From: Escherichia phage B2 | Sequence record: NC_073069.1 | Strand: one strand, 5' to 3' | DNA length: 44,283 bases | Shown here: positions 3,051 through 37,614 of the stretch, piece after piece | Position numbering within the stretch: position 1 is the first letter of the stretch | Layout of the letters: each line of letters opens with the position of its first letter | Notes under the pieces: generated by a model | What the model was told of the DNA's origin: nothing | Seen by the model: only the letters and a program-made list of their open reading frames with translations | Database searches by the model: none | Program-made: the position numbers and the translations under genes

Positions 3051-4475
3051 ATGGCAAGATTCCGACGTCGCGAATATCAGAAGTTGATAACCGCGTTCAT
3101 CCTCAAGCATAAGCGATGCAATATCTGGGCGACAATGGGGTCGGGTAAAACTGGCGCGACCATGTGGGCACTGAATAAAATGTTCCAGACTGGTATCCTG
3201 TCCAACCGGGAGGACCGCGTACTGGTGCTGGCCCCGCTGCGCGTTGCGTCCGGTACATGGCCCCCGGAGCAGGAGAAATGGCGCTTCCCCGCCCTGCTGG
3301 TAGTAGACGGCACAGGGCCAGAGAAGGACCGCATTGCTGCGCTTGAGAGCGACGCTAACGTGGTTTGTGTTAACTATGATGTGGTTGAGTGGCTGGTTGA
3401 CTATTACGGCGCTGCGTGGCCCTTTACGGTCGTTGTTGCCGACGAATCCACTAAGCTGAAAGGCTATAGAAGCAAGCAGGGGAGTAAGCGCGCCCGCGCA
3501 CTGGCGGCGATTGCCCATAAGCACGTCAAGCGCTGGATTAACCTTACCGGCACACCCGCGCCAAACGGACTGAAAGACCTGTGGGGTCAGACGTGGTTTG
3601 TCGATGGTGGCGAACGCCTCGGCAGTAGCTATAAGGCATTTACGGATCGCTGGTTTATTAGCAAGCCTGTTAAGCCTGGCAGCTTCACTATGCAGCACGC
3701 CCCGCTTAAGAACTCCGAGAAAGAAATACAACAACGCCTGTCTGACGTATCGCTCACCGTTGATGCGGCTGAATACTTCGGATGTGACAAGCCAATCTAT
3801 ACGCCGGTTGTTGTGGACCTGCCGAAGAAAGCCCGCAAGATTTATGACCAGTTCGAAGCGGAGCTATTTGCCGAACTGGAAAGCGGAACGGTGGAGGCGG
3901 CGAACGCTGCTTCGAAGACCATTAAGTGCCTTCAGCTTGCTTCCGGGGCCGTGTATAAGGTCGACGAAGACGGCGAACGGACCGACGAATGGGTGAAAAT
4001 TCACGACGCTAAACTGGACGCGCTGGAAAGTATCGTGGAGGAGTTGAACGGCGCACCGTTGCTCGTCGCATACCAGTACAAGCATGACCTGGCGCGTCTC
4101 AGGAAGAAATTCCCGCACGGCGTAGCGATGGGTAAGGGTAAGCAAGGCAATAAGGATATGGAAGCGTGGAACAGGGGCGAGATCCCCATCATGTTTGCGC
4201 ACCCCGCATCGGCGGGTCACGGCCTTAACTTGCAGGATGGCGGACACCACCTTGCTATCTTCTCAGACACCTGGAACTATGAGCACTTTGCGCAGATCGT
4301 GGAGCGTATCGGGCCAGTTCGCCAGATGCAAGCCGGACACCCTCGTCCCGTATTCGTCTACATTATCCAGGCGCGCGGCACACTGGATGAACTGGTCGCA
4401 GAGCGTCGAGACAGTAAGCGAGATATCCAGGACGACCTGATGGAATACATGAAAGCTAAAAAGGCGCGCAAGTGA
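3051..4475 (+). CDS. SNF2/DEAD-like superfamily 2 helicase
   Basis: Walker A GSGKTGATM, motif II VVADESTKLK, C-terminal HPASAGHGLNLQ; start trimmed to the first ATG after the upstream stop. Confidence 0.85.
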   Translation: MARFRRREYQKLITAFILKHKRCNIWATMGSGKTGATMWALNKMFQTGILSNREDRVLVLAPLRVASGTWPPEQEKWRFPALLVVDGTGPEKDRIAALESDANVVCVNYDVVEWLVDYYGAAWPFTVVVADESTKLKGYRSKQGSKRARALAAIAHKHVKRWINLTGTPAPNGLKDLWGQTWFVDGGERLGSSYKAFTDRWFISKPVKPGSFTMQHAPLKNSEKEIQQRLSDVSLTVDAAEYFGCDKPIYTPVVVDLPKKARKIYDQFEAELFAELESGTVEAANAASKTIKCLQLASGAVYKVDEDGERTDEWVKIHDAKLDALESIVEELNGAPLLVAYQYKHDLARLRKKFPHGVAMGKGKQGNKDMEAWNRGEIPIMFAHPASAGHGLNLQDGGHHLAIFSDTWNYEHFAQIVERIGPVRQMQAGHPRPVFVYIIQARGTLDELVAERRDSKRDIQDDLMEYMKAKKARK

Positions 4476-5487: not shown

Positions 5488-5520
5488 ATTGGTTGCATAA
5501 TCATATTGGTTGCATTATAT
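5488..5520 (+). promoter_or_regulatory. tandem ATTGGTTGCA motifs followed by TATATT
   Basis: attggttgca at 5488-5497 and 5505-5514, upstream of the 5569 gene. Confidence 0.4.
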
Positions 5521-17783: not shown

Positions 17784-20426
17784 TCATCGTTTGTACAGTA
17801 CACCACCCGGTTTCGTCGCTTTCACGATCTCGGCCTTCACCGCCTCGGTGATTTGCTTGCCGAACGCCTGCGCGGTACGGGGGTCCGGCCCGCTGACACT
17901 GGTATCCGTTTTACCGGTCCCAGTGTAAACGTTAGTCGTCACGACCATACCACCGCCTGCGCCAGACGCGGCAACGCCCAGTTTACCGTCCGGCCCGCGC
18001 TTCAGTGGCATGATGGCCTCGGGTCCAGCCTCACCCATCAACCCTGCGCCCTTAGCGAACGCCTGGACGCCATAACTGAAAAAGGTAGGCTGGCTTACCA
18101 CTTTCCCCGAATAGGCCGCTAGATTGCCTCCTGCGTACGCTCCGCCGTCCGCATTCTTAGTCAGGCCAGAGAAGATAGCGCCGAACAATCCGTTTTTGCC
18201 GCCGTCACCACCGAATGCGCTAACGATGGACTTGAATGCCTGCGATGTAGCCAGCTTGATTAATTCGCTCAGGATGGATTTGACCATATCCTTCGCGTTA
18301 ATCTTGCCCGTCTCGAAAAACTCGTTCATCGTGTCTTGCATAGCGCTGAACGTGAATTTAGTGAGCGACGCCATCTGCGTATATCCGTTACCCATTTCAT
18401 CCACGCTATCCTTAAGCCCGCGACTGAATCCATCCCATAGCGAGGCGTTAGCGCCGGTCTGCGCCTCCTGCACTTCCCGCAGCTTAGACACCGCCTTGTC
18501 TATATCAGTATCGTTAGCGCCAACCCTCTTCAGACGGTCGATTAGCTGCAATTCTTCGCGCAGGTTTGCCGCTTCGCGAGTGGAAAGCGCATAGCCCGCG
18601 GCGGTAGCTTTTAGTTCGGCGTTCTGGTTCTTAACGAAGGCATCGATCTGCGCGTGCGCCTTAACCTGCTTTTCTTTCGCGTCCAGCAATTTGGCTTCTT
18701 CGACGATCTGCTCGCGCACTTCCTTCACGCGTCCGAATTCTGCCATCTGCTGCTTTTCGGCCGCCGTTAGCGCTCTTTCTTTGCTCGCGGCGATTAACTG
18801 CTCATTGTCGGCGATCAGCTTGTTTAAGGCCGCTTGAGCGCGTTGCGTGCGGGTCTGCGTAGACGCGTTGGCTTCGATCTGCCTGCCGGATTCTCGAAGC
18901 TGGGCCAGTTCGCTCCGTGCGACTTCCAGCATTTTCATACCGGCATCCACGCGAACAGCCGCGGCCTTCTTCGGGGCCGGGTCTTTGTAACGCTCGTTTA
19001 CCTGCTTAACCGCCTCAGCAAGCTCTTTCTCGTCAATAACGCCGCGCTTATTCAGCAAATTGAGGCGGGCGATCTCGTCTGCGCGCTTCTTCGCGTTGGT
19101 TGCGTACTCCTTCTCGAACGCGGCGCGGTCACGGGCAGTGCGGTTGGCCTCCTCGTTCGCCTTTGCGGATTCGTCTGCGGCGCGGGCGTTGTCTCGCTCC
19201 GCACGGTTACGCAGGGTTAGCGACGCCACCACTTTTTCCTGGGCGACCAGTTCGCTGTAAAGCATGTTAATACGTGCTTTCTGCGCTTCAGTCATTACCC
19301 CACCGGCAGCGTTTACCGCTTTCATCTCGGCATAATAAGCCGTGGTCATGCGCTGCAATGACTCACGCGCTTTCATCTCTGACTCATTCGAGGACTGCGC
19401 GCGGCCCACATCCAGGATGGCATCCCACATTGATTTGGCTGCCGATGTGACGACGTTCATCGACCGCTCAAGCGTACCCATGTTGGACTTGATTTCATGG
19501 GTCATGCTGGTGAACGACGCAGCGGCTGTTTTGTTAGCCAACGCAACTGCGTCTGTCTCGCGACCCGCATCAACGAGCGACTGTACCTGCTGGATCTGCG
19601 CTTCGTTTACGACGTGATACTTATCCGCCAGCGCACGCAGTCCGCCAACGGGGTCGGTTGACAGCTTCGCCACCGCCGCTACCACATCCTCGATCGGCTG
19701 GCTGGACACCTTCGCGAAATCATTAACTACCTTAGCCAATGCGCCGAAGTCACCGCCCGCTTTCACACCCGCCGCCGCCAGCGCCTGGATTGTGTCACGC
19801 GTCTTGCGAAATGACCCGCCCATGCGCTCGGCGTTCTCGGACAGCACCAGGATCTGGTTAGCGGTGAGGCCGGAGATATTACCAGACAGCGCCAGCGTCT
19901 TATTAAGCGCCGCTACCTGGTTCTCGGCCCGTGACGTAATTGCCACGCCCACGCCTAACGTCGCCGTCACTGCCGCAAGTCCGATCCCTACTGGGCCGAG
20001 GAAGCCCGCAACATAACGCAGCGTGTTACCCAGTCCGCCAAACGCCCCAGTAAGCTGCGGTAGCTGCTGAAGCATAACGCGGTGCACCGGCATACCCATC
20101 TCAAGCGTTACCGCAATATCCTGCAACTGGAATGCGGCGTTCCGCGATGCGAATCCCAGGTTTTTGGTCGACATGCCTAATCGGCTGGCGAGTCGCTCCT
20201 GTTTCGTCATGCCATCTGCGGCACGCTGCGATTCAGTCGCTAACTTTTCCATTCCGCCCGCGGCGTCGCCAGTAACCTTTTTCGACTTGCCGAGTGTGTC
20301 GTTTAATTTCTTTACTTTCTGTTCTGTGTTCTCGGATTTCTGCGCAAATGTGTCCAGCACAGTATTAGCCGTTTTAATTTGCGCGACGTCCGCCTTGAGC
20401 GTGATGCCCGCTGCCTGATCTGCCAT
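17784..20426 (-). CDS. tail tape measure protein
   Basis: 880 aa, long alpha-helical and alanine-rich repeats, G-rich C-terminus; aggggga SD before ATG 20426. Confidence 0.85.
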   Translation of the reverse strand: MADQAAGITLKADVAQIKTANTVLDTFAQKSENTEQKVKKLNDTLGKSKKVTGDAAGGMEKLATESQRAADGMTKQERLASRLGMSTKNLGFASRNAAFQLQDIAVTLEMGMPVHRVMLQQLPQLTGAFGGLGNTLRYVAGFLGPVGIGLAAVTATLGVGVAITSRAENQVAALNKTLALSGNISGLTANQILVLSENAERMGGSFRKTRDTIQALAAAGVKAGGDFGALAKVVNDFAKVSSQPIEDVVAAVAKLSTDPVGGLRALADKYHVVNEAQIQQVQSLVDAGRETDAVALANKTAAASFTSMTHEIKSNMGTLERSMNVVTSAAKSMWDAILDVGRAQSSNESEMKARESLQRMTTAYYAEMKAVNAAGGVMTEAQKARINMLYSELVAQEKVVASLTLRNRAERDNARAADESAKANEEANRTARDRAAFEKEYATNAKKRADEIARLNLLNKRGVIDEKELAEAVKQVNERYKDPAPKKAAAVRVDAGMKMLEVARSELAQLRESGRQIEANASTQTRTQRAQAALNKLIADNEQLIAASKERALTAAEKQQMAEFGRVKEVREQIVEEAKLLDAKEKQVKAHAQIDAFVKNQNAELKATAAGYALSTREAANLREELQLIDRLKRVGANDTDIDKAVSKLREVQEAQTGANASLWDGFSRGLKDSVDEMGNGYTQMASLTKFTFSAMQDTMNEFFETGKINAKDMVKSILSELIKLATSQAFKSIVSAFGGDGGKNGLFGAIFSGLTKNADGGAYAGGNLAAYSGKVVSQPTFFSYGVQAFAKGAGLMGEAGPEAIMPLKRGPDGKLGVAASGAGGGMVVTTNVYTGTGKTDTSVSGPDPRTAQAFGKQITEAVKAEIVKATKPGGVLYKR

Positions 20427-20494
20427 TATGCAGTCCCCCTTTTTATGCAGTTGCCGTCGGTCATTGTATCAGCGAATTTAAAACAAACCTTATT

Positions 20495-20816
20495 CAGTCT
20501 CAGACGAGGGGGGCCAATAACCCCCGTCTAGTCTGAAAGACTGGGCTTTGTCCCGCCTGTCCCGATCGGCTAAAACCCGCGGCAGCACTGGCGGGGACAG
20601 GGGTGCTGTCCCGCTTTGTCCCGCCTCATTCTGTCCCGCTTTCTGTCCCGTTTGTTTTATGCAGAAAAACTGAATAGGCATTCACATTTTGGGGCGGGAC
20701 AGATCGGGACAGCACCCCTGTCCCGCTTTTAATTTATGCAATGTAGGTGGGTAAATATGCAGTTTTTAGAGGTGCGGGACGGAACGGGACAAAACGGGAC
20801 GTCCCGCCTGTCCCGT
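20495..20816. repeat. hairpin plus GTCCCGC iteron array, copy A
   Basis: First 70 nt (20495-20564) are 68/70 identical to 37292-37361; about 14 GTCCCG(C) units in both orientations up to 20816. Confidence 0.75.
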
Positions 20817-20820
20817 TCCG

Positions 20821-21146
20821 TTATGCGGGGTTCTGCCGCGCCATCTCATCCAGCGCAACGCGTTCCATTAGCTTGATATCTTTAAACGCACGTTGCGCGT
20901 TTTCGATACCGTGCATCTTAAACAGCCATTCTAAAACACCGTAGTCGATGCCGTATGCACCACCGAATCCGGTGCGCCATTGCGTGGAGCAATCTGTGAA
21001 GACTGCGACTACCTTCGCGTTGTCGGGCCATAGCGCAACGGGAGGACACACGTCTTCAGGTGTCGCACCCCATAAACTCGCGGCTAAATCTTCGGAGGGT
21101 GGCGGCGGGCCATAAAAGCGCCGCGCCGCCTCAATTAGTTTTTTTC
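20821..21146 (-). CDS. tail assembly chaperone -1 frame extension (gpT-like part of a G/GT-type fusion)
   Basis: Frame downstream of the G-like gene stays open in -1 from the slippery site through to 20821. Confidence 0.55.
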
Positions 21147-21497
21147 ACGCAACCCCATCAGTTCGAGGTAGTACGACGTATGGAACACGCCGAACGCGCG
21201 CGGGTAGTTGACCACCAGGCGGCGGACGTTCTCCGCGTTAAATTCGTCTGGAAGATTCCAGCCTTCAGCTACGTGCATGATGGCCTCGACCATAACGTTA
21301 AAGCCGTCCGGGTCATTGTCGTCATATTCCGACAACTTGCGCTCAGTATCCTGCATGGTCTGTGAGAATTCGTCGATGGGGCGGTGGCGCACGGTAAACG
21401 TCATTTTGCCTGGTTCGTTTTCGCCGGGGCGCGGGATTTCAATCGGCAGCTTAAAAGTCGGCTTAGGGTCAAGTGTAAAGAGTGGTGCTTTAGCCAT
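21135..21497 (-). CDS. tail assembly chaperone (gpG-like)
   Basis: 120 aa from ATG 21497 with ggaga SD; ends ...GLREKN at a GAAAAAAAC slippery run. Confidence 0.6.
   Translation of the reverse strand: MAKAPLFTLDPKPTFKLPIEIPRPGENEPGKMTFTVRHRPIDEFSQTMQDTERKLSEYDDNDPDGFNVMVEAIMHVAEGWNLPDEFNAENVRRLVVNYPRAFGVFHTSYYLELMGLREKN
21138..21144 (-). other. putative -1 programmed ribosomal frameshift heptamer A AAA AAC
   Basis: Slippery X XXY YYZ heptamer in the zero frame just before the G-like stop; the -1 frame continues into the 20821..21051 ORF. Confidence 0.55.
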
Positions 21498-21512
21498 TGT
21501 AGTATTCTCCAA

Positions 21513-21536
21513 TAAAAAAGGGGCCGTACTGGCCCC
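21513..21536 (-). terminator. intrinsic terminator between major tail gene and chaperone gene
   Basis: ggggcc-agtac-ggcccc on the minus strand followed by ttttttatt. Confidence 0.6.
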
Positions 21537-21566
21537 ATATTAACACCCGCTATTTAAGCGACCAAA

Positions 21567-22292
21567 TTACGACAGCGCCTCAACCAGGTCCTTACGGTAA
21601 ATAACCATATCGGACTGCATGGTCAGAGTGGACTCCACCGTCTCCACGTTGTTTACTTCAGCAGATGGAATCTTCCGGAAAGACACCTTAGCCGGGTAAA
21701 TGCGGATCTCACCTTTGCCGCTTGCCGCTGCCGGGTTAGTGAACTTAATCACAGTGGTTTTCTGTGTGTCGTCCAGGTCTTCCAGAATCGGGCGGATCGG
21801 GTCTTCTTCGTCGTGGGTGAATGTGTAGGTCTGGACCAACGGGTTTTTCGTGGTGTTCAGACTGATCGCGGTATTCACCTGCAACGGCTGGAATGTGGTG
21901 GTCTGCTGGTCGCCACCCGACACGGCAACGTTAGTGATATACGGGAAGTCGACAAAGCTAGATACCTTCACCACCTCACCCGGTGTGCCTGTGCTGAAAG
22001 CGCCGGTAGGGTATTTGGTGACGTCTTTAGTATCGAAGCGCGCCAGTGTAACGTCGTTAGTCGCCACTTTGCCCACAATGAACGCGCGGTTCAGCGCACG
22101 GACCCACGGGGTTTTAGTGAACATAACCACGTCACCAACTTTCAGGCCATGAGAAGCCGCGCAGGTGATAACGCAACCTTTCGTAAGATCAGAGATCGAC
22201 GCGGCGGCGTTGGTGGCTGCCGTAACAGCGATGCCGGTGCCCAGTACGGACCCAATCTGGACGCTGGACCCGTTAGGAAGTTGATAACCCAT
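21567..22292 (-). CDS. major tail protein
   Basis: 241 aa, position upstream of chaperone/tape measure genes, aggagcg SD, terminator immediately downstream. Confidence 0.6.
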   Translation of the reverse strand: MGYQLPNGSSVQIGSVLGTGIAVTAATNAAASISDLTKGCVITCAASHGLKVGDVVMFTKTPWVRALNRAFIVGKVATNDVTLARFDTKDVTKYPTGAFSTGTPGEVVKVSSFVDFPYITNVAVSGGDQQTTTFQPLQVNTAISLNTTKNPLVQTYTFTHDEEDPIRPILEDLDDTQKTTVIKFTNPAAASGKGEIRIYPAKVSFRKIPSAEVNNVETVESTLTMQSDMVIYRKDLVEALS

Positions 22293-37096: not shown

Positions 37097-37137
37097 TGCA
37101 ACCAATATAGCAGGGTGCGGGGGTGGGCGCAACCAAT
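37097..37137 (-). promoter_or_regulatory. two ATTGGTTGC motifs upstream of the 37075 gene
   Basis: On the minus strand ATTGGTTGCGC...ATTGGTTGCACACCAACA then SD and ATG. Confidence 0.45.
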
Positions 37138-37291
37138 ATTAATCACGCGCATGAAAAAGTCGATCGCTATCTGCTGCAACTGCAAACTGCATTTCTCACT
37201 CACCATTCTGCAACTCGCATTGGTTGCCTAGTTCAGCGACGACCGCAATTTCCAATATGCTGCCGTGTATTATGCAATCCCGGATTTTATG

Positions 37292-37448
37292 CAGTCTCAG
37301 ACGAGGGGGGCCATTGACCCCCGTCTAGTCTGAAAGACTGGGCTTTGTCCCGCCTGTCCCGCTCCCCGCCAGGCCGCGTCATCCGTGGCGGGACGGGGGT
37401 GCTGTCCCGCTTTGTCCCGCCCCTGGTCTGTCCCGCTTTTTGTCCCGC
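37292..37448. repeat. hairpin plus GTCCCGC iteron array, copy B
   Basis: 37292-37361 is 68/70 identical to 20495-20564; followed by about 7 GTCCCGC units; lies downstream of the primase gene. Confidence 0.75.
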
Positions 37449-37498
37449 TTACTTTATGCAGTTTTATTGCATAACTATGCATTATATTCACACTACAC

Positions 37499-37614
37499 GG
37501 CAACCAATACGACCGACTAAAAGCACGCAAAATGGCAACCAATGCGCGCAGAATTTAATCATTTACCGATATGGGGATCCCCATAACGGCAACCAATGCA
37601 CGCAAAATTTAATC
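37499..37614. repeat. GGCAACCAAT direct repeats flanking a 16-bp perfect palindrome
   Basis: 30-bp repeats at 37531-37560 and 37585-37614 (27/30 identical), a third core copy at 37499-37508, palindrome tatggggatccccata at 37570-37585; overlaps the primase stop. Confidence 0.6.

Follow-up and report, generated by a model that had tools for sequence, protein, structure and literature searches.

[quoted passage not shown] The tail tube (major tail) protein gene (21567-22292, minus strand) is recognized by Pfam Phage_tail_3 (E=3e-33), and the tape measure protein gene (17784-20426, minus strand) by both TMP_2 (E=3e-43) and Tape_meas_lam_C (E=2e-13). The terminator-like hairpin, GGGGCC-AGTAC-GGCCCC followed by a T-run, is located at 21520-21536 of the minus strand, i.e., between the tail tube gene and the chaperone ORF; a scan of 20300-21700 for sigma-70 promoters gave no site. 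The 1.4 kb surrounding the frameshift site discussed below matched 157 phage records at 80-96% nucleotide identity, all of which correspond to HK578-like Dhillonvirus coliphages, including PC2, HK578, EP23, SSL-2009a and Sodalis phage SO-1.

The first ORF of the pair (21135-21497, minus strand), referred to as G hereafter, encodes a G-like tail assembly chaperone of 120 aa, followed by a stop, and would give the zero-frame product. It matches Pfam Phage_TAC_4 (PF08748) from end to end (E=1.4e-23; 83.9 bits, for a gathering cutoff of 21.1). Its start is most likely the ATG at 21497, which is preceded by a GGAG 9 nt upstream and is the start found in all GenBank relatives inspected; the upper coordinate of 21512 that had been given in the initial annotation is set by a TTG, an unlikely start. 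When 18 distinct Dhillonvirus sequences are compared, the variable sites of G are distributed as 11/7/81 over the three codon positions.

It had also been proposed that G ends in ...GLREKN on a slippery sequence, and this is what is found: the chaperone frame reads ...CGT GAA AAA AAC TAA, with the heptamer A AAA AAC (X XXY YYZ) at plus-strand coordinates 21138-21144, minus strand, flush against the zero-frame stop TAA (21135-21137, minus strand), itself a possible pause element. Read on the minus strand from 21147 to 21135, the site is TGA AAA AAA CTA A, so that a TGA (21145-21147, minus strand) closes the -1 frame immediately 5' of the heptamer. Given this TGA and the zero-frame stop, the two frames can be joined only within 13 nt, TGAAAAAAACTAA, which correspond to the heptamer stretch. 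Heptamers of the X XXY YYZ form with Y = A or U represent 32 of the 16384 possible ones, and AAAAAAC occurs three times in the whole 44-kb window when both strands are considered. In addition, the heptamer is invariant in all Dhillonvirus loci read, and the 10 nt made of heptamer and stop are invariant in the 18 distinct Dhillonvirus sequences, in which 69% of the third codon positions of the same gene vary. The rarity of this heptamer form, the mere three copies of AAAAAAC in 44 kb and the invariance of the site amid varying third positions make a chance origin not credible.

Downstream of the heptamer, the -1 frame is open as far as 20821, in agreement with the initial annotation, and thereby defines a T-like segment (T, 20821-21144, minus strand) of 107 codons closed by a TAA at 20821-20823. 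T is recognized by DUF1799 (PF08809; E=3e-21; 75.9 bits, for a gathering cutoff of 26); DUF1799 and Phage_TAC_4 are the sole Pfam matches of the pair at E<=1. In the PHROG 17368 profile, which has 213 positions, G aligns on positions 1-107 and T on positions 147-212; since this single family covers both G and T, fused products already exist in phage annotations.

The pair is widespread. A tblastn search with the conceptual fusion retrieved 1154 phage records, mostly from T1-like Drexlerviridae of Escherichia and Klebsiella, and G and T are two separate pieces in nearly all of the matches listed. T was found in the -1 frame in all of the 30 loci read first, down to 31% identity, as well as in 35 of 39 T1-like loci. 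The reading of 80 further loci from IMG/VR, mostly 42-49% identical, revealed a TAA or TGA stop directly after the heptamer in every one of them (80/80). The heptamer itself is A AAA AAC in 79/80, in the form GAA AAA AAC (76 loci) or CAA or CGA AAA AAC (three loci), and is replaced by G GGA AAC in the last one (L093), where G ends GAG GGA AAC TGA. As G GGA AAC is another canonical heptamer, it is the slipperiness of the site that is kept, and not the amino acids. Unlike the phage studied here, Serratia phage Scapp and the Webervirus N141 have slip sites that are not heptamers, namely GAAAAG (GAAAAGTAT) and CAAAAG (GCAAAAGTT), respectively. Altogether, the -1 position of the downstream part is maintained in about 150 related loci, the most distant at roughly 30% identity, and in nearly all of these A AAA AAC directly abuts the stop.

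The remaining four of the 39 T1-like loci are IMG/VR contigs (L120, L127, L145 and L146, at about 495-510) that read GTAAAAACTAA, i.e., one A fewer than their relatives. T is then in the +1 frame instead of the -1 frame, which reflects either a homopolymer sequencing error or a real variant.

The heptamer is followed, after 7 nt, a spacing within the 5-9 nt expected of an RNA stimulator, by a predicted stimulatory hairpin (21101-21130, minus strand) in which GGCGGCG-C-GGC faces GCC-CGCCGCC across a 9-nt loop. The 50-nt segment that includes this hairpin has a minimum free energy of -22.1 kcal/mol (z=-3.3), a stability reached by none of 200 shuffled sequences, and, of about 650 windows of 30 nt across G-T, that of the hairpin is the most stable. 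The same window is top-ranked in every Dhillonvirus and in most T1-like Tempevirinae, and in the latter the stem is GGCGGUU/AACCGCC, that is, a different sequence in an identical register. The hairpin also leaves a trace at synonymous sites. Among Dhillonviruses, one of its ten third codon positions is variable, versus 150 of 211 elsewhere (Fisher p=1.6e-4), and the three least variable 10-codon windows of the G-T pair all overlap the slip site and the hairpin. For the T1-like set, in which the measure based on variable and invariant sites is saturated, third-position diversity was used in its place, and the windows covering the slip site and the hairpin rank 1-3 of 188 for the lowest diversity.

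Pairing of the stem can also be followed across relatives. Its four foot base pairs are formed in 93.9% of the cells of an alignment of 61 distinct sequences, as compared to 80.4% after shuffling and at most 70.5% in slid registers. Double changes are present in 36 cells and three pair types are used at one position, even though these covarying changes are non-synonymous and come from few clades, so that they may be explained in part by protein co-variation and shared ancestry. RNAalifold, applied to the 61 ungapped sequences, returned no family-wide consensus structure; as the helix was specified by hand, support for the stem comes from the counts and their controls. Two relatives at about 60% identity retain the stem; in one of them, a C has become a U, which forms a U-G pair. 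Many intermediate clades (median rank 0.11) and three divergent T1-like loci have a weak hairpin or none, and this structure is thus not a universal requirement. Both the suppression of synonymous variation and the compensatory changes indicate that this hairpin is under evolutionary constraint.

An additional stimulator of the type known for dnaX, i.e., an upstream Shine-Dalgarno-like element, was considered as well. The window does have a GGGG 8 nt before the heptamer, within the range of about 6-17 nt expected for such an element. The corresponding Gly codon varies between GGA, GGG and GGC among Dhillonviruses, however; its third base being unconstrained, the comparison lends such an element no clear support.

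The position of the pair, the overlap in the -1 frame, the heptamer and the lack of a conserved start for T together support, at the level of the sequence, the G/GT-type frameshift that had been put forward in the initial annotation. A programmed -1 ribosomal frameshift would thus, with high probability, yield two tail assembly chaperones from one start codon. Most ribosomes would terminate at the TAA and release the 120-aa G-like protein. In a minority, the Lys and Asn tRNAs would move back by one base on A AAA AAC and pair anew with AAA AAA, after which CUA and 105 more codons would be read in the -1 frame to give a 225-aa GT-like fusion (...GLREKN-LIEAARRF...).

In E. coli, A AAA AAC and G GGA AAC are heptamers of low efficiency (Sharma et al., 2014; PMC4066793), which are nevertheless very likely used by IS elements (PMC4066793); both of them are seen in this chaperone family. 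Because the heptamer is intrinsically weak, the signal appears to be boosted by the adjacent stop codon and the hairpin. More precisely, the GC-rich hairpin located 7 nt downstream would stall the ribosome over the slip site, and the combination of a weak heptamer, a stop and a hairpin would fit the need for a small and fixed amount of GT, as in lambda. If these proteins work like those of lambda, the tape measure protein would be coated by the G part that both products share, and the tail tube protein would be recruited through the T part; tail assembly would depend on GT being made at a low, fixed ratio to G, and the virion would contain neither of the two. The lambda G/GT precedent is that of Levin (1993) and of Xu (2004, 2013), as cited in PMC3025963 and PMC6763657.

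A fusion protein could in principle also arise by transcriptional slippage, with RNA polymerase adding one A at the A7 run (21139-21145) in a fraction of the mRNAs, which would then be translated in frame with a junction reading ...REKK-LIEAARR.... The site does contain A7, and E. coli genes contain fewer homopolymeric A or U heptamers than expected, whatever the frame, possibly as a result of slippage (PMC4066793). That 4/39 T1-like contigs differ by one A further indicates that the run is error-prone at some level, perhaps only in sequencing. A run of seven A's is among the shortest on which the E. coli RNA polymerase slips efficiently. Relatives without a long A run nonetheless keep the arrangement, with the G GGA AAC of L093 and the Scapp and Webervirus N141 sites mentioned above, and a constrained hairpin at a 7-nt spacing is typical of ribosomal frameshift stimulators and has no role in slippage by RNA polymerase. 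Transcriptional slippage is thus an improbable explanation for this site. The A7 run could still add some of it to the ribosomal frameshift, which remains the preferred reading.

Even less probable is an independent translation of the downstream ORF from an internal start, whether the GTG at 21051 or the ATT of the HK578 record, with the heptamer being incidental. Public records do list two separate genes: in HK578 and SO-1, gp16 starts at an ATT that overlaps the gp15 stop, i.e., it begins on the last base of the G stop, and T1-like records choose various internal ATGs. These annotated starts differ between records, though, and the ORF is split into arbitrary fragments in Bas83 and Bas16. In addition, there is no conserved start codon: across 13 diverse relatives, the first ATG, GTG or TTG is found 19-69 codons into the -1 frame, at no fixed position, and a protein begun at the first candidate of L020, 69 codons in, would lose most of DUF1799. 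When T was used as the query of an exhaustive HMMER search, 1151 relatives were retrieved, the best 150 of which are 38-150 aa long with ragged N-termini. Inspection by eye of the sequence preceding the GTG did not reveal a Shine-Dalgarno sequence.

The coding potential of T also extends upstream of this GTG. The DUF1799 match begins at residue 25, seven codons before the first possible start codon (residue 32), and the variable sites of the stretch between the heptamer and the first GTG are distributed as 5/0/13 by -1-frame codon position in the 18 Dhillonvirus sequences, a pattern indicating that this stretch evolves as coding sequence, though without a preceding start. Moreover, the -1-frame protein is conserved from codon 1 in the same set of 13 diverse relatives (KKL[I/K]xA[A/V]..Y..P.P..[E/D]L), and the heptamer is invariant while neighbouring synonymous sites vary. 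As part of the frameshift reading, T is therefore predicted, with high probability, to be made solely as the C-terminal portion of the 225-aa GT fusion (minus strand, join(21497..21138, 21138..20821)). Lastly, a frame-disrupting mutation or a sequencing error in one real gene is scarcely worth considering: homopolymer runs are error-prone and four T1-like contigs do differ by one A, but the same -1 relation is found in all Dhillonvirus loci read, in the 30 + 80 loci and in 35/39 T1-like loci, a recurrence in independent isolates and metagenomes that excludes sequencing error, and no in-frame G-T fusion exists among the best 150 of the 1151 DUF1799 relatives.

G/GT frameshifting is a textbook feature of long-tailed phages. 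The lambda heptamer is G GGA AAG, and this slip site has been reported to need no flanking stimulator; here, in contrast, A AAA AAC is used, with the stop directly adjoining it and a constrained hairpin after that. The overall organization is otherwise the same, as the lambda G/GT pair likewise lies between the tail tube and tape measure genes (see also Xu, Hendrix and Duda, 2004); its second ORF is in the -1 frame as well, a slippery heptamer comes shortly before the first ORF ends, and the two products share their N-terminus. Lambda gpG and gpT belong to different Pfam families, and similarity to lambda-type chaperone families was not detected here. Similarly, searches of PDB sequences with the fusion, the G profile or the T profile gave no relative. 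AlphaFold2 produced a modest model of G from a 3-sequence alignment (pLDDT 67), consisting of a beta-hairpin and four helices, and Foldseek found no match to this model below E=1 in the PDB. The pair is analogous to lambda G/T in predicted function and in position, with no sequence homology detected.

In contrast, the pairs of T1-like Drexlerviridae, of Scapp and of Edwardsiella phage eiAU are true homologues, with 30-48% identity and the same frame relation. The Tempevirinae have in common with Dhillonvirus the whole layout of A AAA AAC, stop, 7 nt and hairpin. What distinguishes the locus studied here from those of the T1-like phages, Scapp and eiAU is the distance to the tape measure gene, which is within -8 to about +70 nt in these phages, whereas 394 nt of repeats intervene here. 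Other points of comparison come from E. coli itself. IS1 insA-insB' relies on the same low-efficiency A AAA AAC, with little fusion protein made (PMC4066793); its product is a transposase and not a chaperone, and no stimulator has been established for the IS1 site (PMC4066793). E. coli dnaX and IS911/IS3 likewise combine a heptamer with a downstream stem-loop or pseudoknot at short spacing. The dnaX signal differs by its highly efficient A AAA AAG and its upstream Shine-Dalgarno-like element, no constrained version of which was seen here.

Frameshifting has already been evoked for several of these homologues: it was stated in the case of the T1-like Klebsiella phage Skenny (PMC6763657) and predicted for ORF22/23 of Edwardsiella phage eiAU, which are homologues of SO-1 gp15/gp16 (PMC3025963), and the homologue is annotated as a joined frameshift CDS in the Scapp record. 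Of seven Dhillonvirus records examined (two of HK578, the deposited one and the RefSeq copy, and those of SO-1, Lzu_P1, Dru_SM5 and the curated BASEL phages Bas16 and Bas83), none has a joined frameshift CDS, and our search of the literature found no paper describing a frameshift, or experiments on G/GT, in a Dhillonvirus. In these records, the pair is labelled as hypothetical proteins; the Lzu_P1 record is devoid of T, and those of Bas16, Bas83 and Dru_SM5 carry arbitrary fragments of it. G is in addition mislabelled as 'tail length tape measure protein' in the RefSeq HK578 and Bas83 records, and PHROGs 569, 680 and 17368 carry the same tape-measure label, so that this misnomer can spread through automatic annotation. 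In our own set of loci, annotation problems were noted in L001/L002 (HK578), L147 (SO-1), L110 (Bas83) and L111 (Bas16), as well as in L003 and L007.

The mechanism is thus of a known, ordinary kind and opens no new question; what is new is an unannotated instance in Dhillonvirus. Its practical value lies in the correction of annotations, the proper predicted product being the 225-aa GT fusion. The site is also a clean natural case of a weak A AAA AAC that abuts a stop and is followed, after 7 nt, by a constrained hairpin. Because this layout is common to two phage groups that have different stems, it would make a convenient model for the tuning of low frameshift rates in E. coli.

The intergenic region that separates T from the tape measure gene (20427-20820, minus strand) lies outside the frameshift signal and corresponds to 'region A' of SO-1. 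The initial annotation had mentioned an iteron element of 390 bp before the tape measure gene and considered this position to be unusual. The element is real, the gap amounting to 394 nt, and so is its singularity, since, in 70/72 non-Dhillonvirus relatives, the distance between the T stop and the tape measure start is -8 to +9 nt. In Dhillonviruses, it is about 383 nt, a stretch in which 10-12 GGGACA motifs are found, and region A is present in all 157 Dhillonvirus records. Alongside CGGGACAG octamers in either orientation, it contains five YTGCATAW boxes, an inverted repeat of 35 nt and a long terminal hairpin, and it would fold with z=-7.9 if transcribed. Rfam gave only sub-threshold miRNA-hairpin noise over the inverted repeats. 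The possibility of a mobile element shared with the host was rejected, as no match was found in 5,426 complete E. coli genomes.

Region A has a paralogue in the window (~37290-37480), 89% identical over about 165 nt and situated directly after the helicase-primase gene. More broadly, this second repeat region (~37290-37600, minus strand) displays CGGGACAG in direct and inverted orientations, YTGCATAW boxes and the same long terminal hairpin. The two repeat regions contain 9 of the 16 YTGCATAW boxes of the window. The relationship is not new in itself, as the GenBank record of SO-1 (GQ502199) already annotates 'region A' and 'region B' as related repeat regions.

Arrays at the same place are found in two relatives with about 60% protein identity. 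In L151, a contig from Logan (SRR35890635), the array following the T stop (3195-3385) consists of GGTGCCAG/CTGGCACC repeats and retains the TGCATAAAT and ATTGGTTGCC motifs; in L149, it is found right after the T stop (3196-3221) and is built from CCGGCAACG. The position of the array is thus conserved and its octamer is lineage-specific (CGGGACAG versus GGTGCCAG), which suggests that these are sites for a lineage-specific DNA-binding protein. The repeat regions are possibly iterons of the ori/crr type or operator arrays. A tentative proposal, on the unlikely side, is that the two arrays act together within the late tail operon, either as a replication origin in two parts or as a regulatory switch to which a phage protein binds; if true, such an element would resemble the ori/crr of satellite phage P4 and would uncouple the expression of the tape measure gene from that of G/GT.

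Directly after the T stop (20779-20821, minus strand), copies of the iteron form a perfect 13-bp inverted repeat (ACGGAACGGGACA / TGTCCCGTTCCGT), the inner part of which is annotated as a rho-independent terminator in the HK578 record. In HK578 itself, the arms of this repeat are degraded, which means that the hairpin is not a conserved feature. A short terminator-like hairpin (GCGCCTACGGGCGC followed by a T run) is also present between T and the start of the tape measure gene in the T1-like loci L004, L027, L028 and L029, and in most other relatives the T and tape measure genes overlap by 1-4 nt.

Another motif, ATTGGTTGC[A/C], is found at 20 sites in the window when up to one mismatch is allowed, for 3.5 expected, for instance at 5488-5514, 37097-37137 and 37499-37597. 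It may correspond to a phage promoter or to a regulator motif. At 5488-5514, the ATTGGTTGC motif merges with TTGCATAA to give ATTGGTTGCATAA, and three exact copies of it are located just upstream of region B.
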